A model generated the notes under the pieces. That model worked only from the letters and a program-made list of their open reading frames with translations, had not been told where the DNA came from and ran no database searches. DNA of 44,800 nt from Candidatus Hydrothermarchaeales archaeon (lineage in GTDB: Archaea > Hydrothermarchaeota > Hydrothermarchaeia > Hydrothermarchaeales > JAZGAD01): contig JAZGAD010000043.1 in NCBI GenBank assembly GCA_036444275.1, forward strand, positions 1 to 44,800, in the 5' to 3' direction. The translations under genes were made by a program, and so were the position numbers. Below are positions 10,400 through 44,800 of the stretch, piece by piece. Numbering within the stretch: position 1 is the first letter of the stretch; each line of letters starts with the position of its first letter.

Positions 10400-11875
10400 A
10401 TGGCAAACGTAGTAGAGTCCGGAGATGGTTTTGAGATTGTAGAAGAGAACGGTGAGCTACTATATAATGTAAAGCAGGTTAAGTTCTCTGGGGGTGAGAA
10501 GGCGTTCCTCAAGGATGTTGAGGACAGGGCAATAAGGGACATAGACATAACTCCGACAGGCGCCGAGGATAAGTCAATGAGGGATGCTCTACTCAGCTCA
10601 TTGATTAAGATGATAGATGAGCTCGTAACCTTGAAGGGGAAGGAGGCAACGGGCTCCCTGAGCGATGAAAAGAAGCTTGCCATGGCTGAGCTCATAGCCA
10701 ACAACATGCTGGGCTACGGCGCCATCGATCCACTGCTCCAGGACGACGATCTTGAAGAGGTCATGATCATAGGTATTAATGTTCCAGTATACATTGCCCA
10801 TAGAAAGCACGGCACCTTACCTACCAACATCGTATTCGAAGAGGATACAGACATACAACGCATCATTGAGAGGATAGGCCGACACAGCGGCAGGAAAATA
10901 GATCTTGCGAACCCGCTTCTCGATGCCAGACTACCTGACGGCTCCCGGGTAAATGCCACACTTAGGCCAGCTTCCCTCGACGGTTCTACTGTAACCATCC
11001 GGAAGTTCCAAGCCGAGGCCTTAACCATAATTAATATCATTAAATTTGGGACGATGGGCTCGGAGGTCGGGGCATTCCTCTGGCTCGCAGTGGATGGATT
11101 CGGTGTGAAGCCGAGCAATATCATTGTATCGGGTGGCACAGGCTCTGGCAAGACCACGACGCTGAACTGTCTGGGCCTATTCGTGCCGAAAAAGGATCGG
11201 GTAATCACCATCGAGGACACTGCCGAGCTCCAGCTTCCATTGCAGCACAAGATAAGGCTCGAGACAAAACCTCCGAACCCAGAGGGAAAGGGAGCCTTGA
11301 CGTTCAACCAATTGCTCATCAATACCCTGAGGATGCGTCCAGATAGGCTCATCCTTGGTGAGGTGCGAGGGGAGGAGGCGGCGACCCTCTTCGTTGCCAT
11401 GAACACTGGTCACGACGGATGCATGGGCACAGTGCACGCGAACAGCGCTGATGAGACAATAACCAGATTGATAAATGCACCTATGAATGTGCCCATCATC
11501 ATGATGCCGGCTCTGGACCTCATCTTAATGCAGAACAGGATAACTGTGGGCGGCAAGGTTAAGAGGCGGATAACGGAGATAGCCGAGGTCTCGGGCGTAG
11601 AGATGGATAAGGTGCTATTGAACAGGGTATACACTCATGATCCGAAGACCGATGTCGTGAAGTCCACAGGCGTGCCTAGCAGGCTCATGCAGGATATAGC
11701 CGAGAAGGCCGGAGTGACTGTTAAGGATGTACATACTGAGTTGGAGAAGCGGCAGATACTCTTGGATTACTTGATCAGCAAGGATATAACAAAGCTTGAG
11801 GATGTCTACGGATGGGTGCAGGACTATTACTTAGACCCAGACAAAATTCTGGATAAGATATCGAAGGGCGTTTAA
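10400..11875 (+). CDS. CpaF/VirB11-family (type IV pilus/Tad) assembly ATPase
   Basis: [61 protein letters not shown]. Confidence 0.95.
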
Positions 11876-11881
11876 TTTAAT

Positions 11882-12649
11882 TTAGAACTCCCTGTATAGG
11901 TCTTCTGTCGGGTAGACGTTTATACCCGTTGCACCTATGTCAATGAGGCAGATCTTTTGGCTGTGCTTGGTGCCCCTCATCTTAACTATCTCCAGGCCTC
12001 TCACCCGCTCGCTTCCCTTCTTAATGTTGTACAAGGCGATGACACCTTGGCACATGAACTCCTCCACCCCGAAGCGCGATATGCCTCCCTGTCCCTCAGG
12101 CATTTCAGTGAGCAATAGGGACGTGCATCCAAGCTCGTTGAGGAGGTTGCTCAAGCCGAGCACTTCTTGACGGATCTCGTAGATGTCCTCCATCTGGAGC
12201 GACAGAGATGCAAGGGAGTCGATAACCAATCGCTTGGCATTAAGGCTCTCCACCTCTCTAGTTATTATGTCCCTCACGAGGTCTACAGAGAACTTTCGGG
12301 GTGTGAACTCAAGGAGGTTGCTATCCTTTTGTTTCTCTAGATCTTCTGGTGAGATGTATTTCGTACCCTGGGCTATGCTCGCCTTCTGAGGTATCATCCC
12401 TATTATCTTGATCTTGCTCATGTCCCAGCCATACCCTGAGAAGTTCCGCACAATGTCGCGGGGGCGTTCCTCTAGGGTAATGTATATGCCGTTCTCGTTG
12501 TAGTCTGTGAATCCCTTGTAGAGGTATTGCATGGCAAAGGTGCTCTTTCCGGCGCCCGGTCCGCCAGCCACCAGTATCGTGTAACCTTTGGGTATCCCAC
12601 CATCGAGCATCTCGTCGAAGCCAGCTATTCCAGTTAACGTCTTCTCCAT
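11882..12649 (-). CDS. Single-domain KaiC/RAD55-family ATPase
   Basis: TGIAGFDEMLDGGIP, GGPGAGKS, TLEE, VIDS, GVEEF, KMRGT. Confidence 0.93.
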   Translation of the reverse strand: MEKTLTGIAGFDEMLDGGIPKGYTILVAGGPGAGKSTFAMQYLYKGFTDYNENGIYITLEERPRDIVRNFSGYGWDMSKIKIIGMIPQKASIAQGTKYISPEDLEKQKDSNLLEFTPRKFSVDLVRDIITREVESLNAKRLVIDSLASLSLQMEDIYEIRQEVLGLSNLLNELGCTSLLLTEMPEGQGGISRFGVEEFMCQGVIALYNIKKGSERVRGLEIVKMRGTKHSQKICLIDIGATGINVYPTEDLYREF

Positions 12650-12664
12650 AATATCCTCCTCGAT

Positions 12665-15343
12665 TCAGCGTATCACTAGCTTGGCTACCAACGGCTTTGT
12701 GGCTGCCATTTGGTTATATATAGTATCCTCCTTGCTTTTAAATTCTTCCAAACCCTCATTGGCCAATGCCAGGACCTCGTCTTTGGGCTGGTTCTTGGCT
12801 GCGTCGTACCAATCATCGACGAGAGTGATCACATAGGCGAATCTCTTGACTTTCCATTTATGGGCATCGAGCACGCCTTCCTTGGGGCATTCAAGGCTGT
12901 ACCTCTTGCAGATCTCTGCCATTGACTCCTTGTAGCCCTGTATGGTTGCATAGTCGCGCACGTCATAGAAGAATGCCTCTCTGTTCACAGGCTCGGCTGT
13001 AAATGCTATAGCTTTCTCTGGCCTCTCAACGAGGATGAGAAATTGTGTGGCAACCTGGGCCCCTGCAGCGCCCAGTGAGTCGTCGAACCTGAACTTGCCT
13101 TGGGGCAGGCTGAATATAATGCCCCCGCCTAGCTTGTTGCCTACAACGATGTGGTCTGGGAACATTTTAGAGAAATCTGCGCTCCCGACATGCCACGCCT
13201 TCCTTATGCCACCTATCGTCTGCACTTGGTTCCACTCCACGTTGATAGCTTTGTTCAAACTCTCTACGTCCCCGCCCACGGCAACGCCGGAGTCGTAGTC
13301 GCCTCTAAGCACCCAGTCCTTTACGATCTCGTCTGGGTTTCTGAAGTTTATCGGCTGGGCATAGCCCTGCATTTGGAGATTGTTCACCTCAATGGCGTCT
13401 ATAAAATAAGGCTTGTCGGCAAAGATGCCGAAGAACTCCTCTCCTTCTACGTCGTAACCCTGCTTGCGGTCAGCAGTCTGGAAATCCCAACCCTCTGTAC
13501 CTAGAAGGAGGAAGCCCGTTTCCTCGTCAGCTATGATTATATGGTGCTCTAATCCGTTCTCGTCGTGGATTGCCATGCTGGAGAAGGGCACTAAATTCTC
13601 AGCGTCGTGATCGGCGTATCCGAGGGTCGAGCCGGTGAGCCAGTCGGTCTTGCTATCCACCCGGTCGTTGAATACCAAAAGGTCGTGGTCGTTGAGCTTG
13701 TCGTACAGGCGATAGTAGGAGCGGTCGAGGTTCAGATCGATTTTGTAATAGGGGTTCTCTATGATAAGCCAGCCCTTTTTTGGTGCCTTGGAATCGATCC
13801 TATTTTTCACATCTATAAACGCCTCGACTCCCTTGCCGCCCACATCCACGGTCTTAGAGAGTTTGAGGGAGTAAACATCCGTAGTTTCAGCCTCCGCGGC
13901 CCCGGCTCCTGCTCCGGCTCCTGCGCCCCCTCTCAAGAAGAAAAAACCGACTGCCGCAATGAGCAATACTAAGACCCCCATGATGGCATACTTCGACACA
14001 CCAACCTTTTTGACGACAACCTCCTCTGACACTGCAGTCGCAGCTGCGGCTACGGTTGCGGTTGCAGCGGCTTCGGCCTCGGCTAATGCTCTCTCTTCGC
14101 CTAATATCTTGAATCCCCTCTCGATATCGAAGAGGTACCATGTAGGCGTCGTCTTCATGCCCTTAGCGTGTTTCACTCTGAATTTGCGCTTGAGTGGCGG
14201 CCCCTCTTCGAATTCCATTTCTAGAACTGCATCTGCCATGGCGCGCAGGGCCATCACGGTCTGTTCGTCATGCATTTCCTCTTGCAGGGTGTAGAGCACG
14301 AAGCCGTACTCAGTCTTAGCCCTCGAGGATAGTACCCCTACGAACTTCTTTATTTCGCCAACAGGTGCATGGAGGAAGAGAGTTGAGAGAGAATCAAAGA
14401 ATATCCGCATGGGCTTGCCGATCATGCCCGCCGCTTTGGCAAGGTGGATATTTATCAGGTTGAGGTTGGCTGGGTTGTCGATGTGTAAGCCCTTATCGTA
14501 TTTCATGCCCGTGGAGTAGGAGTAAATATCTATGAAGAGGAATTGGCTCGCCTCATAGGTGTCGAGGTCAAATCCATCCTCCCTCAGCTTATCCTTGATC
14601 TCCTGGGGGCTCCGCTCAGTGGTTATGTAGACGATGCTCTCCCCCTTTTTGAGATACTCCTTCATTAGGTTCAAGCAGTATTCGTATTTTCCAACTCCGG
14701 GGGGGCCGGTGAGAAGGGCGGTATAGTTCTTAGGGAAAGGTATTTTCAATGTTACTGCCTTTGCCGGGGCTTTCTTTTTTCCAACGGGTTTTTCGACCAC
14801 GTCGACCTCTTCTTCTGGCGGAGGAAGGGCCGTTTTCTTTTCCCTAGCTTGTTCTTTGGCAGCAGTATACATCATCTCATATGTAGCGTTTCCGGGATCC
14901 AGCTTCAAGGCAGTATCAAAGCTTTCAACAGCCTTATCGAATTCTTCCAGAAGACCCAGCACCATTCCTTTATGGTACCACAGCTCGCCATTCTTAGGAT
15001 CTATTCCCAAGGATTTGTCGAAACCCTCGATAGACGCCCTTACTTTCTCATTGTCGTCAATAGCAATACCCCAATCCTTCAAGGCTAAAGCCTTGTGAAA
15101 CCACGCTTTAGGGTTTCTTGGTTCAAGCTTCAAGGCTTCGTCAAAACTCACTACAGCCTTATCGAATTTCTTTGAATTGTAGAATTCGTTCCCTTCTGCG
15201 ATTAAGGAGTCTGCGGTTTTTTCTGCCGCTTTGGGAGCCTCTTCTGGGACTTTCGTCTCAGTGGCTTCGATTTTTGAGCCGCATGTCAAACAAAATGGAG
15301 CACCTTCAGGAACTTCTTCTTTGCATTCTGGGCACTTCGCCAT
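12665..15343 (-). CDS. Membrane-anchored Zn ribbon-TPR-KaiC/RAD55-like ATPase with large C-terminal external domain
   Basis: CPEC..FCLTCG ribbon, about three TPRs, GPPGVGKY/TTE/IFFDS ATPase-like domain, TM YAIMGVLVLLIAAVGFFFL, then ~400 aa soluble domain. ATG 15343 with GGTGG RBS is preferred over 15379. Confidence 0.85.
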   Translation of the reverse strand: MAKCPECKEEVPEGAPFCLTCGSKIEATETKVPEEAPKAAEKTADSLIAEGNEFYNSKKFDKAVVSFDEALKLEPRNPKAWFHKALALKDWGIAIDDNEKVRASIEGFDKSLGIDPKNGELWYHKGMVLGLLEEFDKAVESFDTALKLDPGNATYEMMYTAAKEQAREKKTALPPPEEEVDVVEKPVGKKKAPAKAVTLKIPFPKNYTALLTGPPGVGKYEYCLNLMKEYLKKGESIVYITTERSPQEIKDKLREDGFDLDTYEASQFLFIDIYSYSTGMKYDKGLHIDNPANLNLINIHLAKAAGMIGKPMRIFFDSLSTLFLHAPVGEIKKFVGVLSSRAKTEYGFVLYTLQEEMHDEQTVMALRAMADAVLEMEFEEGPPLKRKFRVKHAKGMKTTPTWYLFDIERGFKILGEERALAEAEAAATATVAAAATAVSEEVVVKKVGVSKYAIMGVLVLLIAAVGFFFLRGGAGAGAGAGAAEAETTDVYSLKLSKTVDVGGKGVEAFIDVKNRIDSKAPKKGWLIIENPYYKIDLNLDRSYYRLYDKLNDHDLLVFNDRVDSKTDWLTGSTLGYADHDAENLVPFSSMAIHDENGLEHHIIIADEETGFLLLGTEGWDFQTADRKQGYDVEGEEFFGIFADKPYFIDAIEVNNLQMQGYAQPINFRNPDEIVKDWVLRGDYDSGVAVGGDVESLNKAINVEWNQVQTIGGIRKAWHVGSADFSKMFPDHIVVGNKLGGGIIFSLPQGKFRFDDSLGAAGAQVATQFLILVERPEKAIAFTAEPVNREAFFYDVRDYATIQGYKESMAEICKRYSLECPKEGVLDAHKWKVKRFAYVITLVDDWYDAAKNQPKDEVLALANEGLEEFKSKEDTIYNQMAATKPLVAKLVIR

Positions 15344-15458
15344 AATAATACCACCGTTATTGTTGTTTTGGGGGTCCATATTTATATAAGTTTTATTAAA
15401 GAATAAGAGAGTAAGAATAGGAAAAAATTAAATTAAAAAAAGAATGAGGAGCCGGTAT

Positions 15459-16244
15459 ATGGGTGAGTCGATTGTGGTGGCCTCTGGAAAAGGCGGCGTA
15501 GGCAAGACAAACATTTCCATCAATCTTGGAGCTGCTATGGCTCAACTCGGCAAAAGGGTTACCGTTCTAGATGCCGATATTGAGATGGCCAATGTGGAGC
15601 TGCGCCTTAGATTGGAGAAGGGGGGTAAGAGTCTCCACGATGTGCTGGCAGGGAATGCAGACATATTCGATGCGGTTTACGACGGCCCAGCTGGATTGAA
15701 GGTTGTGCCATGTGGGACATCCTTAGAAGGCCTCAGAGCCGCTGACCCGAGTAAGCTGGGTGAGGTTTTGGGTGAGTTATTGAAGACGACGGATATCCTT
15801 GTTATCGATGCCCCAGCGGGCTTAGGAACTTCTATGGGGGCGATGGCGGTAGCTCATGAGATGCTTATAGTAGTTAACCCCGAGATCGCGTCCATTGCAG
15901 ATGCCATGAAAGTGAAGCAGGTCTTCCAGGAGTTGGATGGCCACTTACTCGGGATAGTGGTGAATAGGGCCACTTACCACGAAGAGGACTTGAAGATCCA
16001 CGAGATCGAGGCGCTTCTAGATGCCGAGGTCATCTCTGTCGTACCTGAAGATAGGGCCATGAAGCAAGCTGCGGCCTACGGAAGCCCATTGGTTATATCG
16101 GCTCCATATTCCCCAGCGGCCAGGGCGATCAAAAAACTAGCTGAAAATATAATCACCAATGAATTCGGCCCGAAGGAGCCTCCAAAAGAGGACATGGTTA
16201 GCAGGATCATATTCGGCTTATTCGGGGGAAGGAGCAAGACTTAA
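15459..16244 (+). CDS. minD: Archaeal MinD-family ATPase
   Basis: SGKGGVGKT deviant Walker A, LDADIEMAN, IDAPAG, C-terminal amphipathic MVSRIIFGLF. ATG 15459 follows a GAGGAG RBS. Confidence 0.88.
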   Translation: MGESIVVASGKGGVGKTNISINLGAAMAQLGKRVTVLDADIEMANVELRLRLEKGGKSLHDVLAGNADIFDAVYDGPAGLKVVPCGTSLEGLRAADPSKLGEVLGELLKTTDILVIDAPAGLGTSMGAMAVAHEMLIVVNPEIASIADAMKVKQVFQELDGHLLGIVVNRATYHEEDLKIHEIEALLDAEVISVVPEDRAMKQAAAYGSPLVISAPYSPAARAIKKLAENIITNEFGPKEPPKEDMVSRIIFGLFGGRSKT

Positions 16245-16245
16245 T

Positions 16246-17256
16246 TCAGCCTTCGTAAAATTTACCCATGATGTTTTGGAGTTCGTCCTTCTCAAGCTCC
16301 CGGACCTTGTACTTTTCCATCAACTTCTTCCGCATCGCATCCCTTTCGGCCTTGAGTTCAGAGGAGGCATCTTTGATGCTCGCCGCTTCTTGTGGAGTTA
16401 TCTCCCCGCGGGCGATGCCTTCCTGCACCTTTAAAACGCTGGTCAAGACATCGTCGGGCATTATATAGCGCTTGTCGCCCCTGTTATCAACAGTCTCTAT
16501 CATTACATTTTTGTCAAGGAACATTTTCTCGGTTTCCAGAATCTTGTTTCGCTGCTCCTCTTGGGGGTATCTCTGATTTATCGTGTTAATCGAAATAGAT
16601 CCACTTCCCTGTTTGACTAGGTCTACGATTTCTGATATCGAGGAATCTTTCATGCTTAGAGCGCTGATTATAGCCTGCTCATTCAACATGCTGCTGATTA
16701 CTTCATTCCTCATTATCATCCTTACATGCTGAGGTACTGTACATTTTATTCCATCAGTAGAAACCACGTTTTTCTTGACCAGTTCTCCGAGGGATTGATC
16801 GAATCCGGTACCGTAAGCGGCTTTCAGGGCCTCGATTTCACCGGTTTCGCTGAACAGAATCATCTTGAGAAGCCGCAGTGTGTTCTCTGGCGCGGTCTGG
16901 AGGAATACTGAGATATGGTTGATGTCGATGGCCCTTTCAACGAGGGTGGCGTCAGGGTTCTTCACAAAGATGCTGAAGAGATTCCCTTCACTGTACTTGT
17001 AGAATTCAATCCGCGATACCTTATTCACCATTTCAGGGACCTTATCAATTACTCCCCTGCCATATTCAGGTAGTCCGAACTTCAGGGCAAGGATGGCGCC
17101 CACGGGTTTGCCGTCCCTCCAGAGGACGTGGACTGTTTTCAGGTTGAAGACGAAGTCCAATCTTCCAGTCAGATGTCCCTTCTGTATGTGATCTACGGCG
17201 TGTTTTGGGCTGTTGAATACTTGATCCAATTTAGAACCTGAGGGCAGGTTAAGCAT
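16246..17256 (-). CDS. DUF2226-like protein
   Basis: N-terminal LNLPSG...LTG.L...VLWRDGKPVGA...IEFYKYSE...NPDA and C-terminal RKKLMEKYKVRELEKDELQNIM recall DUF2226 proteins; recognised by eye only. Confidence 0.55.
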   Translation of the reverse strand: MLNLPSGSKLDQVFNSPKHAVDHIQKGHLTGRLDFVFNLKTVHVLWRDGKPVGAILALKFGLPEYGRGVIDKVPEMVNKVSRIEFYKYSEGNLFSIFVKNPDATLVERAIDINHISVFLQTAPENTLRLLKMILFSETGEIEALKAAYGTGFDQSLGELVKKNVVSTDGIKCTVPQHVRMIMRNEVISSMLNEQAIISALSMKDSSISEIVDLVKQGSGSISINTINQRYPQEEQRNKILETEKMFLDKNVMIETVDNRGDKRYIMPDDVLTSVLKVQEGIARGEITPQEAASIKDASSELKAERDAMRKKLMEKYKVRELEKDELQNIMGKFYEG

Positions 17257-17449: not shown

Positions 17450-20400
17450 TTGGTGGCGAAGCTAGGGGTAGTGTTGAATTACAGTGTAGTTATCTTCGTC
17501 CTTGTGGCTTTTCTGGCTCTGGCGGGGAGCGTTAATGCTACAGTGACGAGTGGGACCCATGTAATACTACATCTCGATGGAGATGGGTTTGATTTCTCTA
17601 CAAATACTACTGTCGGGTTGGGGAGTGCGGATATTAGGTATGGCGAGATAGATCACCTCATACCCATTAGTGATAAAATAAAGGACCTAGGATCTGCTCC
17701 CTTTGAATCTTATACAACAATCGATTTAACTGGCAGTGTAGATCAGGTATGGGTTGAAGAAGCCGGACATACATACGGACTTGAGACAGCCGAGGGTCAT
17801 TTTGCGAAGGTTTATGTCGTGTATATTGATGCGTTTGAGGTTGAACTTAATTGGACTTATCAGGATGATGGCACCAATAACTTCGGTGGCGGTGAAGGCG
17901 GCGTTGCTGCTAACCTTGTAGTGAATAATACGCCCGACGATGCCTGCACAACCGGCGATGCCTACTATACAACTATAACCGCGGCAGTTGAAGCCTCGGC
18001 AAACGGAGGAAACATAACGGTCTGCCCAGGCACCTACATTGATAACGTTTTTATTTCAGGTATAACAGACCTGGACATCCTTTCTTACTCTCAAAATCCA
18101 TCTGATACAATTGTTACGGCTCTCGATCCGGCCATGCATGTTTTTGACATCACTAACGAGTTTGGGGCTGCTGGGGGCGTGAAAATCGCTGGGTTCACTG
18201 TGACAGGCGTAACCCAAGGACATGGGGAACCAGACCCCTCTGGCAGAAGCGCTTTTGCCCTCCTTGAGCAGGGTGATGCACACATTAATAATAACATCAT
18301 CACAGGCAACATGTATGGGATTGAACTGTACCAGTCCAATAACAACACTATAGAAAACAACACGGTCATCTCGAACACAGACCATGGGATCGAACTTGAC
18401 GAATCCACTGGAAATGATATTTATAACAACACGATCAGCTCGAATACAAACATTGGGATCGAACTTCACTTCAGTAATGACAATAACATTTATGACAACT
18501 TTATAACCTCAAGCACAGGCACTGGGATTCTCGTAGAGCTCGGTGGCAGTGATAACAGAATTTATAACAACCTCTTCAACAACCCCACCAACTTTGATGT
18601 CACTTCTGCTGGAATCAACAAATGGAACACTACGAATAGTTCGGGACCGAACATCGTTGGAGGTCCATATTTAGGTGGTAACGTCTGGGCTAAGCAGGAT
18701 GGCACCGGCTTAAGTCAGATCTGCGACGATGTGGATAGCGACAAGATATGTGATTCTCCCCACATACTGGAATCTGGGAACGTAGATTATCTACCACTGG
18801 CACTAGACTTCGATGGCGATGGCGTTTTAGATGGCTTTGATAAGTGTCCTAACACTCCCCAAGGGGCTGCAGTTGATGAGCGTGGATGTCCGGAAGGGTC
18901 CTATCACCTGGATGACAGTGATGGCGACGGCATGGATGATCAATTTGAGAAGGACTTCTGGTGCCTGGATCCTAACATCGCTGATGCGGACGCCGACCCT
19001 GACAACGACACCTTCTCGAACATCAAGGAGTTCTATGGCTACTCCGACCCGTGTTACGGGGGCAGCATCCCGACGGGAGGCATAGGTCCACCGCCTGAGT
19101 TCGGCATGGAAAACTTTTCGTGGTTCGGCAAGACGAACACCAACATCACCTTCAACGAGACTAACGTGACCATTAGTGTTTGGAACGGAACTCACAACCT
19201 GGTCGTTAACGGGACCTTAAACAACACACGCCTATGCAATGATACCGTCGGCGGCTCCAACTTTTACGTTTACCACTTCGAAGCAGAGATCCTCACTGCC
19301 TCAAACCAGAAGATAGGGGGAATGGGTGCCGGGATTATGAACTTTACGAATAAAAACAAGTCCATCTCGGAAGGCACAGACATCCTCGTGGCCTCGCCCA
19401 TGGGCCCAGGGGCACAACTTGCGTTTACGCCGTATGGCTCCATGCTGGGGATAGATCCGTCTTTCAATGGTAGCATTACAATAGATGTTTCCTCCATACC
19501 TCTAGCTCCAACGGAACCGGGTGAGAAGAATTGCACCAAAGTGGGCGATTTCAACATCACCAGTGGAAACCTTACGGGCTTCACCAATATAATAGCGGGG
19601 GGCCTCGGGTTCAACTTCTTTGGTAAGGGATTTAAATTCGGCGGCAATATGTCTTTCGACCCCAACCTAAGCATTGATGAAAGGAAAAAAATGGAGAATT
19701 GGAATACGAGTATCGTGTTCGGTGACAACGTGAACTTCGTCGGAATACCCGATTATATGCCGTTTGGCGCTATAATCCCCAATGGCTCAACCATAGGGGC
19801 CATGAAATACTTCGGCAAGATAACAGGCGGGTACGGCGGCTTCTTCGATGGCGATTTCATAGGAGACGATATCCACTTCGAACCGTTTGTCACGATGTAT
19901 AATGGCTCGAGGATATTCAACGACGTCAGAGTCGGTCAGAATGCGACTATCGGGAACTTTACAGAGATAGGCAACTTCACAGAGATCGGTCCCCTCGTCG
20001 AGTTCGACCAATTCGTCCGTGTCGGCATGTTTGCGGATATAATGGCGGGCGCCAAGATCAAGGAAAACGCGTCCATCGGTTTTGGAGCGTTAATAGGGAA
20101 CAACTCCTTTGTTGGAAAGCTCGTCAATATAATGGATAATGCGACCATTGGCAAGTCGGTCAGGATCTACGACGACGCGAACGTCGGCAAGTACACCATC
20201 ATCGAGAACTTCGCAGAGATATTCAACAACTCTATACTCGGCGAAAACGTCACTATCGGGCAGTATGCGAAGATCCGACGGGATGCGAAGATCTGGGACG
20301 GCTCTATCGTTGGCAACAAGTCCAGTGTGGGTGAAGGCTCGGAGGTATATGAGAGCAGGCTCTATGACTACGTGTCCATCGGCCCGAACATTATCTTGAA

Positions 20401-22060
20401 TAAGACGGAGGCCTGGAACAGCATCATAAACTACACGATAAACGCCGTGAACTTCTCCAACGAGGAGGTCTTCTTGAACCTGACGGTTATCGACTCTAGC
20501 GGCTACATCAGCAACAAGCCTAGCGCTAACGGGAGCATCCATCTCGCGGAGGAAGGGGTCAAAGTGAACTTCACCAATCTAAACGAGTTGCGCAGCCTCT
20601 CGAGCAACATCGTCGTCCACGATCTAATCACGGACGCCAACACTAGCACCTTCTCAGCAGTCATCAAAGATGGCAAGATGAACGTCACCAAGGATGGTGT
20701 ACTCCAGGAGCTGGATGTCAACGCTGGTATTATCACGATCTTCAGCGACACGTCCATGGGTATCGACGTGGGTATGAACTTCACCGACACTATGGACGCA
20801 AATATGGGTGTCGCCGTCATTACGATAAACCCCGGTGGAGTGGCGCTTCCGAGCAAGGCACAAGGCACCAACTTCACCCACCTCTCCGCGCCAGGTGCGA
20901 ACAAGAGCAACATGAATGCGCGCCTATGCATGAAGTTCCCATCGAACCTCGACACCAGCACCGTCAAGATACACTACTTCAACGAGACGGGTGGTGCATG
21001 GGAGGACTATACGACAGAGATCGTAGGCAGTAAGGCATGTGCCAATACCACTCACTTCTCAGTCTATGGAATAAGCGGAGCTGTACAACAGCAACAACAA
21101 CCATCTGGAGGTGGAGGTGGTGCCGCACCTGCCACAGATAAATCGGCTGATGCTACGGAGGTTACGCCTACTGATGCTGATGTAGCCGCGCAGGTGGAGG
21201 CCTCTTTCACGTCGATAGCGGCGGGTAAGAAGGGTACTATATCGGTTCCTGATACAGAGAACATGCCTTTGACGGAGATAGCGATAAAGGTGAAGAACAA
21301 GGTCTCTAATGTTAAGGTGGTGGTTAAATCCCTTACCTCGAAGCCAGCGAATATTACCACGAATGTTAGTGGCGAGGTCCTAAGGTACCTCAAGGTGGAG
21401 CACGAGAACATTGAGGATGCTGACATAGATAATGTGACTTTCAAGTTCAAGGTGGAGAAGACGTGGATGACTGAGAAGAATATAGACCCAGCTGCGGTTG
21501 TGTTGAATAGGTATAGTGAGGACACGTGGAATGCGCTGACTACGACGAAGGTGAGTGAGGATTCCAACTATACCTATTATTCGGCTGAGTCGCCTGGACT
21601 CTCGGTCTTCGCAATATCTGGATCGGTAATTGAAGCCGAGGTCACCTCAACTCCAACGCCTACGCCCACACCTACTACTGCACCTCCGGCTACTACTGCG
21701 CCTCCGGCTACTACTGCGCCTCCAGTTGTGACTACTGTTTCGCCGACTACTACGCTTCCGCCCACGACTCCAGCTCCTACACCAGTGACTACTCCTACGC
21801 CAACGCCTACGCCCAAGCCCCTGTACAAGAGGCTCGGGTTCGTCTTGCTAGTGCTCATCGTGCTGTTAGCGGGCATAGTCTATGTTCTGGATAGGCAGGG
21901 CAGGATAAGTGTACGGGAGGAGCTGGAGAAGCTTAGGGAGAAGTATGGACGTGGGGAGAAAGAAGAAAAGGAAGAGATGGAGCCAGTAGGGGAAAGGGAA
22001 GAAGAGAAGGTAGAAGAGGTAGAGCCGGAGAAGGAAGGAGAAGAAAATCCAGGAACTTAA
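17450..22060 (+). CDS. Giant cell-surface glycoprotein (NosD/CASH beta-helix, Asp-rich Ca-binding repeats, hexapeptide repeats, PGF-pre-PGF, P/T linker, TM, acidic tail)
   Basis: Signal peptide; YGIEL..SNNNTIENN repeats; DFDGDGVLDGFDKCP and DSDGDGMDD motifs; hexapeptide repeats ~19900-20430; KFKVEKTW...SPGLSVFAI; C-terminal TM; many NxS/T sequons. Start TTG 17450 or GTG 17453. Confidence 0.88.
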   Translation: MVAKLGVVLNYSVVIFVLVAFLALAGSVNATVTSGTHVILHLDGDGFDFSTNTTVGLGSADIRYGEIDHLIPISDKIKDLGSAPFESYTTIDLTGSVDQVWVEEAGHTYGLETAEGHFAKVYVVYIDAFEVELNWTYQDDGTNNFGGGEGGVAANLVVNNTPDDACTTGDAYYTTITAAVEASANGGNITVCPGTYIDNVFISGITDLDILSYSQNPSDTIVTALDPAMHVFDITNEFGAAGGVKIAGFTVTGVTQGHGEPDPSGRSAFALLEQGDAHINNNIITGNMYGIELYQSNNNTIENNTVISNTDHGIELDESTGNDIYNNTISSNTNIGIELHFSNDNNIYDNFITSSTGTGILVELGGSDNRIYNNLFNNPTNFDVTSAGINKWNTTNSSGPNIVGGPYLGGNVWAKQDGTGLSQICDDVDSDKICDSPHILESGNVDYLPLALDFDGDGVLDGFDKCPNTPQGAAVDERGCPEGSYHLDDSDGDGMDDQFEKDFWCLDPNIADADADPDNDTFSNIKEFYGYSDPCYGGSIPTGGIGPPPEFGMENFSWFGKTNTNITFNETNVTISVWNGTHNLVVNGTLNNTRLCNDTVGGSNFYVYHFEAEILTASNQKIGGMGAGIMNFTNKNKSISEGTDILVASPMGPGAQLAFTPYGSMLGIDPSFNGSITIDVSSIPLAPTEPGEKNCTKVGDFNITSGNLTGFTNIIAGGLGFNFFGKGFKFGGNMSFDPNLSIDERKKMENWNTSIVFGDNVNFVGIPDYMPFGAIIPNGSTIGAMKYFGKITGGYGGFFDGDFIGDDIHFEPFVTMYNGSRIFNDVRVGQNATIGNFTEIGNFTEIGPLVEFDQFVRVGMFADIMAGAKIKENASIGFGALIGNNSFVGKLVNIMDNATIGKSVRIYDDANVGKYTIIENFAEIFNNSILGENVTIGQYAKIRRDAKIWDGSIVGNKSSVGEGSEVYESRLYDYVSIGPNIILNKTEAWNSIINYTINAVNFSNEEVFLNLTVIDSSGYISNKPSANGSIHLAEEGVKVNFTNLNELRSLSSNIVVHDLITDANTSTFSAVIKDGKMNVTKDGVLQELDVNAGIITIFSDTSMGIDVGMNFTDTMDANMGVAVITINPGGVALPSKAQGTNFTHLSAPGANKSNMNARLCMKFPSNLDTSTVKIHYFNETGGAWEDYTTEIVGSKACANTTHFSVYGISGAVQQQQQPSGGGGGAAPATDKSADATEVTPTDADVAAQVEASFTSIAAGKKGTISVPDTENMPLTEIAIKVKNKVSNVKVVVKSLTSKPANITTNVSGEVLRYLKVEHENIEDADIDNVTFKFKVEKTWMTEKNIDPAAVVLNRYSEDTWNALTTTKVSEDSNYTYYSAESPGLSVFAISGSVIEAEVTSTPTPTPTPTTAPPATTAPPATTAPPVVTTVSPTTTLPPTTPAPTPVTTPTPTPTPKPLYKRLGFVLLVLIVLLAGIVYVLDRQGRISVREELEKLREKYGRGEKEEKEEMEPVGEREEEKVEEVEPEKEGEENPGT
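21100..21630 (+). repeat. Copy 1 of a dispersed ~0.5 kb PGF-pre-PGF coding cassette
   Basis: Identical tracts 21246-21292, 21398-21438 and 21527-21593 match copy 2 at a constant offset of 23058; outer boundaries approximate. Confidence 0.9.
21672..21725 (+). repeat. 18 bp tandem repeat x3 encoding the TTAPP(A/V) linker
   Basis: CTACTACTGC(A/G)CCTCC(G/A)G three times in tandem. Confidence 0.9.
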
Positions 22061-40052: not shown

Positions 40053-40589
40053 ATGAAGGGATTATTCTATCTATTAATTACATTCCTCTTGCTATCTGGA
40101 TGCATTCAAGAACCAGAGCCTAGGGTGCTCGACGTTAAGCCTGTTGTTGATCAATATTTCTTGGGAGGATACACAGGAAAGGGTGCAGAGGGGTTGTTCG
40201 TACTAGCAGGGAATACTGATGCTGTCCGAAATGGTTTGGAAGAGATATTAGGTGGGGGTTCTTCTAGGACAAGTTTCAGTGCAGACGAGGACCTTAATTT
40301 GGTGGCCTTTCGTGGCATCTTTGCTACAGGGGGGCATGGGATAAAAATAGATAAAGTGGAGCAGGTTGGCAAGGTCTTCAATATTTATGCGACTTATACT
40401 GATCCAGGCACAGGTATGATGGTCACACAGGCATTTACTCAGCCTACTGCGATAATAGCTATTGGGAAAATGGTGAAGGGAAGCTATAAAGCAAAGCTCT
40501 TAGTCACTAAGATACTGAAGACGCGTTCCGGGGATAAACTTTTAGAGACAGAGGCACCTAGTATGAGCATTAGCTTTACAGTGAAGTGA
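40053..40589 (+). CDS. Lipoprotein with PrcB C-terminal-like domain
   Basis: Lipobox LLLSGC; AFRG...TGGHGIKIDKV...PG.GMMVTQAFTQP. Confidence 0.75.
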   Translation: MKGLFYLLITFLLLSGCIQEPEPRVLDVKPVVDQYFLGGYTGKGAEGLFVLAGNTDAVRNGLEEILGGGSSRTSFSADEDLNLVAFRGIFATGGHGIKIDKVEQVGKVFNIYATYTDPGTGMMVTQAFTQPTAIIAIGKMVKGSYKAKLLVTKILKTRSGDKLLETEAPSMSISFTVK

Positions 40590-43500
40590 TGGTGCCGAAA
40601 GTGAGTGTTGGTAAAGCTCGTATTATAGTATACCTCTTATTCCTGACAATTGGCATAGTTGCAGTGCAGTCAGTGAAAGGGGAAGGTGTAAGATTAGAAC
40701 CAGCGCCGCTAGGAATTTCTAGTCAAAAACATGTAGAGATGCAGTTGAAGGGAAATGGAAAGCCCCTCCACGACGATAGAATCTTTCTGAAATCAAGGAC
40801 CTTTACTCCTTTCTCGCGAGTCGAGTTCTCGAAGCATTCTAGATCTAGAAGTGCCTTTGGAGTAGGCAAAAAGTTCCACGCTCTTATCCAGCTTGAGCGC
40901 ATACCCGACGAGGAGGATAAAAAAGCCCTCGAAGAGAATGGTATAAAACTATTATCCTATATTCCAAACAAGGCGTGGCTTGTCAGTGTATCGACGAATG
41001 CAGGTGACATCTCTTCATTGCCCCTTGTGAGATGGGCCGGAGAGCTTCTGCCCGAGGATAAGATGTCTCCCTATATCCGAGAGGGAGGTGGCGTGTGGGC
41101 TAGGAATAGAGATGGAACTGTGAATTTGACGGTTCTATTTTTTGAGGATACTTCTATAGATGAGGCAAGGCAGGTCGTTCAGAAATATGGAAAGGTAACA
41201 ATCGAACCGACAACGGGCGATGCCTGGGGGGTTGCAGTGCTAGAGTATTTGGTATCAGAGCTTGCAGGCGAGGATATCGTTAAGTGGGTTGATTATTCGC
41301 ATCCCCCATACATGTCATTCAACGACGGTTCTAGAGCTTCGATTGGAGTAGATGTTGTACAGTTGCCTCCGTATAACCTAAACGGCACAGGTGTTACTGT
41401 AGCCATGTGGGAAGAAGGGCACGCTGACAAAACACATAATGATTTTAGTGGGCGAGTGATCTACGGGGATAGTGCCAGCGTCACTGAGCACGCCACACAC
41501 GTTGCTGGTACATTGATGGGAAACGGTATTGAGAGCAACGGCTTATACCGGGGAATGGCTCCGAATGCTACTCTAATTACCTATGAATGGCCTTATATTA
41601 TTTCTAAATTGTACTCTGAGACAAATGCTTCAATTGCAAATTATAGTGCAGTCCTCTCCCAGAATTCGTGGGGCTATAATGTCCACGGCGATTGCTCCAT
41701 GATGGGGAACTACGATGACTGGTCTCAAGCCTATGATAACATAATCTATGGGAATGCAGGCTTGGCCGGTGTGATAACAATAGTTTTTGCGGCTGGCAAT
41801 GAGAGAGGCTCTGACCCGGATGGGGTGGGCGGGTTTTACTGCGGCCATTATGGTCATACGTACAATACTATTGTAGGACCGGGGGGAACCGCTAAAAATG
41901 TCATAACGGTTGGGGCAGTAAAAAAGAGCAGGGATATGTCTTCTTTTAGTAGCTGGGGGCCTACAGACGATGGAAGGATAAAGCCGGATGTCGTCGCCAT
42001 AGGCGTTAGTGTAACATCTACGTTTCCGGGAAATACATATAAAACCTTGCAGGGAACCTCGATGGCTGCTCCTGCAGTCTCTGGCGTCGTTGCTTTGATT
42101 CACGAGGACTACAGAAGACTGTATAGCGGCGGTGATCCACTGCCTTCAACTGTAAAGGCACTGCTGATACAAACAGCTGAAGACTTGAATAATACTGGTC
42201 CCGATTATACCTCTGGCTGGGGCTTAATAAATGCCACGGCGGCTATAGATTTAATCATGGAGGATAATGGAAGCAGCGATCTGGTCAGAGAGAACAGCAT
42301 ATCAAATAATCAAGTCTATACGTACCATCTCTCTGTTGCCTCCGGGCAAGACAAATTAAAAATTACCTTGGTCTGGGATGATTATCCTGGAACGGTGCTC
42401 GCTGTGAAGGAATTGATAAATGACCTTGATTTGGTGGTCCTAGCTCCAAATGGCTCTAGATTCTATCCTTGGACCCTTGATTCAAGCAATCCATCGGCTT
42501 CTGCAGTTCAAGACACAGAGGATCATACGAATAATGTAGAGCAGGTCTATGTCTTTAATCCCGTAACTGGTATTTGGACAGTAATCGTAAACGGCACAAC
42601 AGTGCCTTATGCTCCACAGAATTATTCCTTAATTAGCAACACGAAGTCTAATGTCATAAGAAACATAGACAAAGGTGTTAATTATAACACAATTCAAGAA
42701 GCAGTTAACGACGCTAACGCTGGCAATACCCTGCTTGTTCTGGCCGCAACCATAAGCGAGAACGTGAAAATCAATAAGACACTGAATCTAAAGGGGGGTG
42801 GAGTTGGTTCAACGATTGTAAAAGCAGCCAATGCCAATGAACATATTTTCGAGATAATTAATGTCAGCGTGAACATCAGCGGCTTCACAATAAAAGGAGC
42901 CAATGGATCTGAAGCAGCTGGCGTCTATCTAAACAAGAGTTCAACCAGCAATATCTCGCTTAACCGTATTTCTAATAATCAGTATGGCATCAAGTTCTAT
43001 GATTCCAACAGCGGGATCATATCCTACAATACTATTTCTGATAATAGCTACGGCATCAAACTTTATGATTCCAACAGCGGGGTCATATCCTACAACACGA
43101 TAATATCCAACAGCTATGGCATTAACTTAAGCAACACCAATGGGGCTTGGATTTATCACAATAATTTCACAAATAATAGCCTTTTGCAGGCCTATGATGC
43201 CGGTAATAACACTTGGAATAGCAGCTATCTTGGCGGCGGGAATTACTGGAGCAACCGGACGTTTCCTGACATCAAGATGGGGCCCTCTCAGAACGTCAAT
43301 GGTAGCGATGGTATAGTCGACAGCGCATATACTATCCCGGGTGGTAGCAATCAAGACAATTATCCCTTTGTCTATCAAAGCGGATGGACCTTAGTGACGA
43401 ACTACTACAATACCACCACTGTAGAGAATGGAACCACCGCAACGGTGATAGACCAGCCAACTCTAGTTGTAAAGGTCACCGCCATTCAGGATGGAAATGC

Positions 43501-44800
43501 CGGGGTCCAGATATACACGATGCTATCATCAGCTAACTACCTCTTCGGCGTCGGGGAAATCAACGCCTCAAGCGCAGGCATAGATCAAGCTTTGAGGTAT
43601 CTCAATGCTTTTAATATCAGTAGCCTGGAGAACGTGAGCAACATCACTATAAGGCTATACTATACCTCCGAGGAGATATCCGGCCTCGACAACAACAGCA
43701 TCGCCTTCCTCTACTGGAATGGCTCAGTATGGTTCAATCTAAAGGATTACATAGGCCAGAATATACCGGGTGGACCCCACGTATATGCTGCAGGCCTGAA
43801 CATGAGTAATGACTACGTCTATGCTGTAGTGGACCATCTAAGCGTCTACGCCATGGGCGGCAACAACAACGTCGCACCAAGGATTACCTTTACGGGTCTC
43901 ACGCCAGCAAATGTTGCATCCTTCGCAGCAGGTACTAGCAGCGTGACCATAAACGTGAGCATCGCCGAGGAGAACCCAGATACCTTGGTTCTCAACTGGA
44001 AGGGCATTAACACTAGTTATAGTTATTCTAGTGGGTATTGGAGCAGGACTAAGAGCGTCTCCAACGGGGAGAGTGTTACCTTTTATATCTGGGCTAACGA
44101 CACCTCTGGCAAGAGCAATCAGACCGAAACAAGGAGCTTCTCAGTTCAAAGCGGAGGCGGAGGAGGTGGTGGCGGAGGAGTGCCAGTTGCCACAGATCAA
44201 ACAGCCGAAGCTAAACTAGTGACGCCAACAGACCCCGATGTAGTCGTGCAGGTTAAGGCCACCTTCTCGTCAATCCCTAAGGATAAGACTGGGACCATAT
44301 CAATTCCTGATACAGAGAACATGCCTTTGACGGAGATAGCGATAAAGGTGCTAAACAAGGTCTCTAACGTCAAGGTAGCTGTGAAGACCCTCACCTCAAA
44401 GCCAACTGAGATCGCCCAGGAGATCGTGGGCGAGGTCTTCAAATACCTCGAGATAGAGCACGAGAACATTGAGGATGCTGACATAGATAATGTGACGATT
44501 AGGTTCAAGGTGGAGAAGACGTGGACGACGGAGAGGAATATAGACCCAGCTACGGTTGTGCTGAATAGGTTTAGTGAGGACAACTGGAATGCGCTGACTA
44601 CGACGAAGGTGAGTGAGGATTCCAACTATACCTATTATTCGGCTGAGTCGCTTGGACTCTCAGTCTTCGGCATCTCGGGATCGGTAACTCTTCCTCCACC
44701 GGCTGCTACGCCTGCTTCTACTACGCTTCCACTAGCGACTACACTTCCACCGACTACTCCTCCTCCACCAACGACACCTGCTCCTACTACGCTTCCGCCT
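40589..44800 (+). CDS. 3'-truncated giant surface S8 subtilase (propeptide, S8, C-terminal beta domain, NosD beta-helix, Ig-like, PGF-pre-PGF, P/T linker)
   Basis: Absent from the ORF track because it has no stop in the window. Manual translation is open from ATG 40589 to the edge (>1400 codons): GVTVAMWEEG, HATHVAGT, FAAGNE, SSWGPTDDGRIKPDV, GTSMAAP, NDLDL, NNVEQV. Confidence 0.92.
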   Translation, partial: MVPKVSVGKARIIVYLLFLTIGIVAVQSVKGEGVRLEPAPLGISSQKHVEMQLKGNGKPLHDDRIFLKSRTFTPFSRVEFSKHSRSRSAFGVGKKFHALIQLERIPDEEDKKALEENGIKLLSYIPNKAWLVSVSTNAGDISSLPLVRWAGELLPEDKMSPYIREGGGVWARNRDGTVNLTVLFFEDTSIDEARQVVQKYGKVTIEPTTGDAWGVAVLEYLVSELAGEDIVKWVDYSHPPYMSFNDGSRASIGVDVVQLPPYNLNGTGVTVAMWEEGHADKTHNDFSGRVIYGDSASVTEHATHVAGTLMGNGIESNGLYRGMAPNATLITYEWPYIISKLYSETNASIANYSAVLSQNSWGYNVHGDCSMMGNYDDWSQAYDNIIYGNAGLAGVITIVFAAGNERGSDPDGVGGFYCGHYGHTYNTIVGPGGTAKNVITVGAVKKSRDMSSFSSWGPTDDGRIKPDVVAIGVSVTSTFPGNTYKTLQGTSMAAPAVSGVVALIHEDYRRLYSGGDPLPSTVKALLIQTAEDLNNTGPDYTSGWGLINATAAIDLIMEDNGSSDLVRENSISNNQVYTYHLSVASGQDKLKITLVWDDYPGTVLAVKELINDLDLVVLAPNGSRFYPWTLDSSNPSASAVQDTEDHTNNVEQVYVFNPVTGIWTVIVNGTTVPYAPQNYSLISNTKSNVIRNIDKGVNYNTIQEAVNDANAGNTLLVLAATISENVKINKTLNLKGGGVGSTIVKAANANEHIFEIINVSVNISGFTIKGANGSEAAGVYLNKSSTSNISLNRISNNQYGIKFYDSNSGIISYNTISDNSYGIKLYDSNSGVISYNTIISNSYGINLSNTNGAWIYHNNFTNNSLLQAYDAGNNTWNSSYLGGGNYWSNRTFPDIKMGPSQNVNGSDGIVDSAYTIPGGSNQDNYPFVYQSGWTLVTNYYNTTTVENGTTATVIDQPTLVVKVTAIQDGNAGVQIYTMLSSANYLFGVGEINASSAGIDQALRYLNAFNISSLENVSNITIRLYYTSEEISGLDNNSIAFLYWNGSVWFNLKDYIGQNIPGGPHVYAAGLNMSNDYVYAVVDHLSVYAMGGNNNVAPRITFTGLTPANVASFAAGTSSVTINVSIAEENPDTLVLNWKGINTSYSYSSGYWSRTKSVSNGESVTFYIWANDTSGKSNQTETRSFSVQSGGGGGGGGGVPVATDQTAEAKLVTPTDPDVVVQVKATFSSIPKDKTGTISIPDTENMPLTEIAIKVLNKVSNVKVAVKTLTSKPTEIAQEIVGEVFKYLEIEHENIEDADIDNVTIRFKVEKTWTTERNIDPATVVLNRFSEDNWNALTTTKVSEDSNYTYYSAESLGLSVFGISGSVTLPPPAATPASTTLPLATTLPPTTPPPPTTPAPTTLPP
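44155..44690 (+). repeat. Copy 2 of the dispersed PGF-pre-PGF coding cassette
   Basis: Identical tracts 44304-44350, 44456-44496 and 44585-44651 match copy 1; outer boundaries approximate. Confidence 0.9.

Follow-up and report, generated by a model that had tools for sequence, protein, structure and literature searches.

A gene trio of a membrane-anchored degenerate KaiC-like protein, a KaiC-like ATPase and a pilus-type ATPase in Hydrothermarchaeota

Introduction

A role of KaiC-like ATPases and of their inactivated counterparts as signalling hubs in archaea has been proposed, but is largely untested. Such an archaeal signalling network of KaiC and inactivated KaiC (iKaiC) proteins was reportedly set out by Makarova, Galperin and Koonin in 2017, in a study said to discuss active/inactive pairs and membrane-linked iKaiC. 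Here, a related locus is described in a window of 44,800 nucleotides, the whole stretch of DNA analysed (positions 1 to 44,800 of contig JAZGAD010000043.1, assembly GCA_036444275.1, from a Candidatus Hydrothermarchaeales archaeon; contig C43 of genome G000, a genome of 1.49 Mb that is 81% complete). The locus comprises the genes for a single-pass membrane protein with an iKaiC domain and a C-terminal domain beyond the membrane helix (the ectodomain), for a soluble single-domain KaiC-like ATPase and for a stand-alone pilus-type ATPase (Table 1). This trio is real, conserved and lineage-restricted, and would be a variant of the proposed archaeal KaiC/iKaiC signalling. It shares with that network an active single-domain KaiC-like ATPase and a degenerate KaiC-like domain to which input modules are coupled, but differs in that iKaiC is fused through one transmembrane helix to a narrow-range ectodomain of mutarotase fold, and in that the trio with the pilus ATPase is fixed.

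Several described systems are close to this one. Fusions of iKaiC with phospho-receiver (REC) domains, and of REC with DUF835, have been tabulated (PMC5847659), KaiC ATPases have been found beside type IV pilus genes and FleN/MinD regulators (PMC4858521), and KaiC homologues in general are treated in PMC11680916. ArlH binds and regulates ArlI, has before the catalytic Glu a Ser/Thr pair described as conserved in ArlH and not in KaiC, and binds ATP without measurable ATPase activity (10.1101/2021.03.19.436134), while CirA is a KaiC-like protein of Haloferax (PMC10983859). The ArlH-ArlI (FlaH-FlaI) and CirA systems have a KaiC-like regulator of a PilB-family motor ATPase, as is proposed for the present locus, and the TT-E motif of ArlH is common to iKaiC; unlike ArlH-ArlI, both KaiC-like proteins of the present locus score below the ArlH cut-off, one of them is fused to a membrane helix, no archaellin was found in G000, and neither ArlJ nor TadC lies beside the ATPase. 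The closest solved single-domain relatives are Pyrococcus horikoshii PH0186 (2zts) for the soluble KaiC, and PH0284 (2dr3) and Sulfolobus SSO2452 (2w0m) for iKaiC, all of which are soluble and have no membrane fusion. Cyanobacterial KaiC (CI-CII) has the same fold, Walker motifs, K/R finger and, in common with the soluble KaiC, a CI-type GVEEF, but the present locus has no tandem domains and no equivalents of S431/T432, and no KaiB was found in the 81%-complete G000. A literature search returned no description of the membrane iKaiC-ectodomain architecture; the supplements of PMC4858521 and PMC5847659, which hold archaeal neighbourhoods, lay outside the search and could bear on novelty.

Results

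Conservation of the gene trio

The soluble gene follows the membrane gene after a gap of 15 nt, both open reading frames (ORFs) being on the minus strand, as reported in a preliminary description of the locus, which interpreted the two as an active/inactive KaiC pair in one operon. Comparison with related genomes revealed that, in Hydrothermarchaeota, a third gene belongs with this pair: that of the pilus-type ATPase, which the description overlooked, is as tightly linked. The comparison covered 38 genomes of the phylum (designated G000 onwards); scans of wider collections with the iKaiC protein were nearly empty (one metagenome locus and two genome loci, one of these an unrelated weak match), and the neighbourhood counts are therefore limited to these 38. 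The gene for the iKaiC-transmembrane-ectodomain protein occurs in 11 of them, and the same 11 carry the orthologous active KaiC, so that the co-occurrence put up for testing in the preliminary description was found. Ten of the 11 KaiC orthologues form one clade (Shimodaira-Hasegawa approximate likelihood-ratio support 94), the frameshifted copy of G018 having been kept outside the tree.

The adjacency of the two genes in relatives was likewise confirmed: nine of the 11 genomes have them side by side, one has a single gene between them, and in one they are unlinked. KaiC lies directly downstream of the membrane gene on the same strand in seven genomes (G000, G005, G007, G010, G018, G020 and G036), where the adjacency in G010 rests on a 55-nt overlap between two contig ends. 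In G001, G013 and G024, KaiC is inverted and lies 0-20 nt after the pilus-type ATPase gene on the strand of the latter, facing the membrane gene, with one gene intervening between the two in G024. The single operon is thus not universal: it fits seven of the 11 genomes, but neither the three with an inverted KaiC nor G023, in which the two genes are unlinked. In 9 of the 11 genomes, which represent five families and two orders, KaiC stands between the membrane gene and the pilus ATPase gene, and this order has survived the inversion of KaiC in G001 and in G013/G024. The sisters of these genomes, G000 and G020, retain the other orientation, so that, provided the trees are correct, KaiC was inverted on two or more occasions. 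A switch of KaiC driven by a recombinase was considered and rejected, as no conserved inverted repeats flank KaiC in six loci. The MinD/FleN-like gene was also rejected as a core member, since it adjoins the membrane gene in only 4 of the 11 genomes.

Co-occurrence also holds within one genus. All three genes are present in G023, but G002 and G019 (98% and 96% complete) have neither the ectodomain gene nor the orthologous KaiC. The single-domain pilus ATPase matches in these two are weaker (48% identity), like the other paralogue of G023. A putative active KaiC homologue in the same genome was noted for 13 of 32 iKaiC-bearing ectodomain homologues and for 0 of 29 without iKaiC, in an indirect count made by eye that includes G000.

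Phylogenetic analysis grouped the nine linked pilus ATPases with one unlinked paralogue of G036 (98/93). Their sister clade was examined at six loci, in five of which the ATPase gene comes after a REC gene and in five after a histidine-kinase gene. These sister-clade ATPases (L054-L057, L059 and L069; family f2) are stand-alone genes that follow a histidine-kinase gene, a receiver gene or both, and no TadC match lies close to them. No TadC match was obtained at ten linked loci including the window, with the TadC proteins of G000 as queries and some of the loci being short. The pilus-type ATPase of the window scores below the NF058587 cut-off. Elsewhere in G000, a 1040-aa protein with two tandem pilus-ATPase domains is followed by two TadC-like genes (C28:32900-36022; L123), and similar double ATPases are present in most genomes of the phylum.

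The soluble KaiC-like ATPase

The soluble protein matches PF06745 with an E value of 8.6e-65 and 218.8 bits, against a curated cut-off of 26.6, and scores below the cut-offs of NF006799 and TIGR02655. Its closest solved relative, PH0186, was matched with an E value of 4e-56. All the motifs named in the preliminary description are intact, namely GGPGAGKS (residues 29-36), TLEE (58-61), VIDS (142-145), GVEEF (194-198) and KMRG (223-226). In an alignment of 47 of the 70 homologue matches, K35, S36, D144, S145, K223 and R225 are invariant (47/47), and E60 is found in 43. The CI-like character with no CII-type phosphosite was also corroborated: when aligned with a two-domain KaiC chain, the protein reached 157 bits for CI but no more than 23-26 for CII. 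Its EEF (E197/F198) falls at the Ser-Thr position of CII, leaving no equivalents of S431 and T432. GVEEF as such is nothing special, as it is present in other active KaiC paralogues of G000, a genome with four of these besides the present one.

The degenerate KaiC-like domain of the membrane protein

The iKaiC domain exceeds the cut-offs of both PF06745 (54.7 bits, E value 1.2e-14) and DUF7504 (40.5 bits), and its structural model (predicted local distance difference test score, pLDDT, 91.5) is closest to PH0284, with a template modelling score of 0.82, while FlaH appears only at rank 34. With the NCBIfam model of ArlH, the iKaiC domain and the soluble KaiC scored 30.1 and 33.8 bits, the cut-off being 215. 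Against KaiC, the domain scored 47-50 bits on CI and 29-31 bits on CII, and in the tree it falls into a clade of its own, distinct from every active KaiC and not sister to the active gene (long branches being flagged).

Residue counts were taken over 52 aligned subfamily members, 31 of which are fused to the ectodomain. The Ser/Thr position of Walker A is Ser in only 4 of the 52 and in none of the 31 fused sequences, and the Lys-finger position is Lys in none (His in 36, Phe in 10), while the Arg-finger position is Lys in 32 and Arg in 18, that is, basic in 50. The TT directly before the catalytic Glu is invariant (52/52). At the position of S431 the domain has K/R, and at that of T432 it has A/H/Y, with Ser in just 5 of the 52. 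The motif changes are thus family-wide and not noise, and the domain is under strong purifying selection, the comparison of G000 with G001 giving nonsynonymous and synonymous values (pN and pS) of 0.087 and 0.67, respectively. Because the Mg ligand and one of the trans-acting fingers are degenerate, the term pseudo-ATPase can fairly be inferred for iKaiC, though not taken as fact; the predicted inactivity is read from the motifs.

The iKaiC subfamily counts 36 members in 23 of the 38 genomes, of which 11 carry the present ectodomain, four carry other ectodomains and 21 are soluble. Of the 21 soluble members, 18 have a REC gene no further than about 40 nt away (confirmed with Pfam for seven). 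None of the 15 membrane-fused members has one beside it, the nearest being more than 6 kb away and some loci being short. Seven of the 21 soluble members have an active KaiC gene, from varied clades, at a distance of at most 2.6 kb. REC genes and ectodomains therefore exclude each other, a gene pattern that looks as if the ectodomain had replaced the phospho-receiver input, the replacement itself being a supposition. Since kin share such traits, these counts and those of the ectodomain below represent few independent events. The external sensor suggested in the preliminary description gains indirect support from this REC-versus-ectodomain pattern.

The four paralogues with other ectodomains include a second iKaiC-transmembrane protein of G000 with a different ectodomain and no KaiC neighbour (C41:11183-12670; L046:6184-7671, minus strand), two in tandem in G001 and one in G024 with a match to 3-keto-disaccharide hydrolase. 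In addition, a separate cluster of G000 (C14:13550-16670; L125) encodes an active KaiC, an iKaiC, a fusion of a KaiC-like domain with a small GTPase, and a roadblock protein, so that active and inactive KaiC neighbours are not rare.

The ectodomain and its exchange among membrane proteins

The AlphaFold2 model of the ectodomain has a pLDDT of 95.3. By VIA-align, it gave Z scores of 20.0 to 5cd6 and 17.9 to the putative mutarotase 3mwx, and Z ranged from 20.0 to 13.7 among the 50 matches listed, with root-mean-square deviations of 3-4.6 Å over at most 288 aligned residues. The matches include mutarotases, lyases and glycoside-hydrolase domains. The modelled ectodomain is thus of a galactose-mutarotase-like fold, and a shared fold reveals no function. 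Many Asp, His, Arg and Trp residues are invariant. The family is narrow, with 20 cluster representatives (one doubtful) in 1.84 billion proteins, and it was found in 18 of the 38 phylum genomes.

Among 61 ectodomain homologues, retrieved from proteins of 497-1582 aa, Lys and Arg are richer on the N-terminal side of the transmembrane helix in 51, with seven ties, and the ectodomain therefore probably faces outside (N-in/C-out). The iKaiC domain is carried by 32 of the 61, while the other 29 have TIR, CBS, zinc-ribbon/TPR or small domains before the helix; examples are P0018 with a TIR domain, P0030 with a CBS domain and P0053, a Methanophagaceae protein, with a small domain ahead of the same ectodomain. 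The zinc ribbon and TPRs are missing from many orthologues of the membrane protein and are hence optional. As both the ectodomain and iKaiC are exchangeable modules, the architecture is as expected of signalling proteins.

Discussion

The reading favoured here, to which a probability of about 0.45 is assigned, is that of a three-part cell-surface signalling unit, in which a signal would pass from the ectodomain through the transmembrane helix to iKaiC, from there to the active KaiC and finally to the pilus ATPase; each contact and the direction of the signal are inferred. The membrane protein would be a receptor-like input whose outside beta-supersandwich, a fold taken from the model, may bind a glycan or glycoconjugate, and the single helix would relay the state of the ectodomain to the cytoplasmic KaiC-like domain. 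With its motifs lost, iKaiC probably binds nucleotide or partners and would hydrolyse ATP poorly, acting as an adaptor family with a phospho-receiver input for the soluble members and the ectodomain for the membrane members. It would contact the soluble KaiC, in the simplest case side by side at the nucleotide interface, where a subunit with neither Mg ligand nor Lys finger could cap or tune the KaiC ring. By analogy with ArlH and ArlI, the soluble KaiC may then set the activity of the pilus ATPase to which its gene is linked.

The locus in this way names a candidate input (the ectodomain, or REC in the soluble relatives), transducer (iKaiC), hub (KaiC) and output (the pilus ATPase), and its three small soluble domains are open to expression and assay. 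If true, the proposed unit would be a type of transmembrane receptor that signals through a RecA-fold pseudo-ATPase, with a reach limited by its narrow range, mostly one uncultured phylum. A wider proposal, tentative and rather unlikely in its full form, is that Hydrothermarchaeota possess a class of single-pass "receptor pseudo-ATPases", in which interchangeable carbohydrate-type ectodomains are joined to a catalytically crippled KaiC. Such proteins would signal across the membrane by binding and tuning one common ring of active KaiC, itself in control of a pilus motor ATPase, with neither kinase nor second messenger, and would have originated when an ectodomain replaced the phospho-receiver input.

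A number of observations weigh against the three-part unit. Since iKaiC retains the Walker A Lys (46/52), the catalytic Glu (51/52), the Walker B Asp (50/52) and the basic R-finger residue (50/52), it may not be fully inactive. The ectodomain is present without iKaiC in 7 of the 18 ectodomain-bearing genomes. The 38 genomes are related to one another, and many of them are incomplete. In G023, KaiC lies two ORFs from the pilus ATPase but is unlinked from the membrane gene, and in G018 the active KaiC (L043:8813-9493) is frameshifted near codon 135, with the contig ending within the gene, which may be an assembly error or a pseudogene. Pairwise distances in eight genomes showed that iKaiC tracks the pilus ATPase (Spearman rho 0.80; ectodomain and pilus ATPase 0.75) better than the active KaiC (0.37), these pairs not being independent, and the mirror-distance test thus did not favour the pairing of iKaiC with KaiC. 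Synteny controls against G000, in samples of 400 kb (G005) and 227 kb (G036), showed that other tight co-directional pairs are also still adjacent (53/75 and 11/18, respectively), while convergent pairs are so in 4/14 and 0/3. As tight co-directional pairs mostly stay adjacent anyway, the operon pair alone is uninformative on binding; its persistence is ordinary operon conservation, and that of the trio is the stronger sign. Prediction of a complex between the iKaiC domain and the soluble KaiC, in the presence of ATP/Mg, had a median of 0.39, with controls at 0.05, 0.22 and 0.00, and was counted neither way. Interaction, ligand, activity and expression are all predictions.

The correlation with the pilus ATPase would fit a different arrangement, in which iKaiC would serve, like ArlH, as a membrane anchor in direct contact with the pilus ATPase, replacing or competing with a TadC platform, while the soluble KaiC modulates this contact and the ectodomain serves as an adhesin or envelope tether and not as a sensor. 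The invariant TT before the catalytic Glu, a pair conserved in ArlH and not in KaiC, the ATP binding of ArlH with no measurable ATPase, and the lack of a TadC match in the window and in the nine other linked loci tested are in line with it. This account is nevertheless unlikely, given an ArlH-model score of 30 bits against a cut-off of 215, a closest structure that is PH0284 with FlaH at rank 34, and soluble iKaiC members that adjoin REC and KaiC genes, with no pilus ATPase among the neighbours listed; moreover, shared rate shifts may explain the rank correlations. Less probable still is that the ectodomain works at the surface as a binding protein or as an enzyme that processes glycans, its cytoplasmic tails being open to exchange, in which case the cluster would reflect shared regulation or a shared pathway, with no direct KaiC-iKaiC complex or transmembrane signalling. 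The likeness of the fold to mutarotases, lyases and glycoside-hydrolase domains, the many invariant Asp, His, Arg and Trp residues and the 29 of 61 homologues without iKaiC agree with such a function, as does a gene with a protein-mannosyltransferase-like match upstream in relatives of family f5. The swapped tails (TIR, CBS, TPR and iKaiC), however, are of kinds typical of signalling or interaction, purifying selection on the iKaiC domain is strong, and the trio persists through inversions.

The preliminary description had instead proposed a split KaiC, in which the soluble ATPase stacks on or co-assembles with a membrane-tethered second half. In the form considered here, a soluble CI-like hexamer would stack on a membrane-tethered ring, as in a clock-like switch. 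Although both domains have the KaiC fold and the genes are co-directional neighbours in 7 of the 11 genomes, this proposal is very improbable and was not supported by the tethered half itself, which is nearer to CI than to CII (50 against 29 bits), has no phosphosites and belongs to the separate iKaiC clade, not as sister of the active gene. Most members of its subfamily (21/36) are soluble and mostly have REC neighbours, and a profile search for KaiB (PF07689) gave no match in the 81%-complete G000. A search for archaellin was likewise without a match in the 81%-complete G000, and archaellins and ArlJ are absent from the window.

Locus features and neighbouring genes

The longest ORF of the membrane gene spans 12665-15379 and has 904 aa, but its likely start is the second Met at 15343, which gives the 892 aa of the database entry. 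An Rfam scan of the whole window gave no match, and a scan for sigma-70 promoters and terminators, a model unsuited to archaea, gave results near chance.

Table 1. Coordinates of the trio, its domains and the adjacent regulator gene in the window.
Feature	Position	Strand	Description and evidence
Single-pass membrane protein	12665..15343	-	892 aa: zinc ribbon, TPR, degenerate KaiC-like domain, transmembrane helix, ectodomain; database entry P0003, 892 aa
N-terminal Cys4 zinc-ribbon motif	15269..15343	-	sequence reading; PF13240 on homologues; alignment
TPR repeats	14870..15217	-	PF00515, E value 1.2e-15; PF13414
Degenerate KaiC-like (iKaiC) domain	14105..14743	-	Walker A GPPGVGKY (Ser/Thr lost); TTE and FDS retained; HAKG in place of KMRG
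Single transmembrane helix	13934..13990	-	residues 464-482, from hydropathy; N-in/C-out inferred
Ectodomain, galactose-mutarotase-like beta-supersandwich fold (model)	12668..13894	-	C-terminal domain of 409 aa; no Pfam family
Shine-Dalgarno-like GAGGAGG	12655..12661	-	within the 15-nt gap 12650-12664, 5 nt ahead of the ATG of the soluble KaiC
Soluble single-domain KaiC-like ATPase	11882..12649	-	255 aa; catalytic and finger motifs complete
Type IV pilus/secretion (PilB/FlaI/TadA-like) ATPase	10400..11875	+	convergent, 6 nt from the KaiC stop; PF00437, E value 2e-48
Archaeal MinD/FleN-like ATPase	15444..16244	+	divergent from the membrane gene; TIGR01969 over cut-off

Convergent with the MinD/FleN-like gene is a gene for a 336-aa protein (16246-17256, minus strand) with no Pfam match, for which an Atlas hit to DUF2226/PatA_N (score 0.84) serves as a lead only. 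Two further genes of the window (17450-22060 and 40586-44800, plus strand) encode large surface proteins that are secreted and contain beta-helix and PGF-pre-PGF-like regions; the second gene extends past the end of the window and, from a reading of the sequence, its product looks like a subtilisin-type protease.

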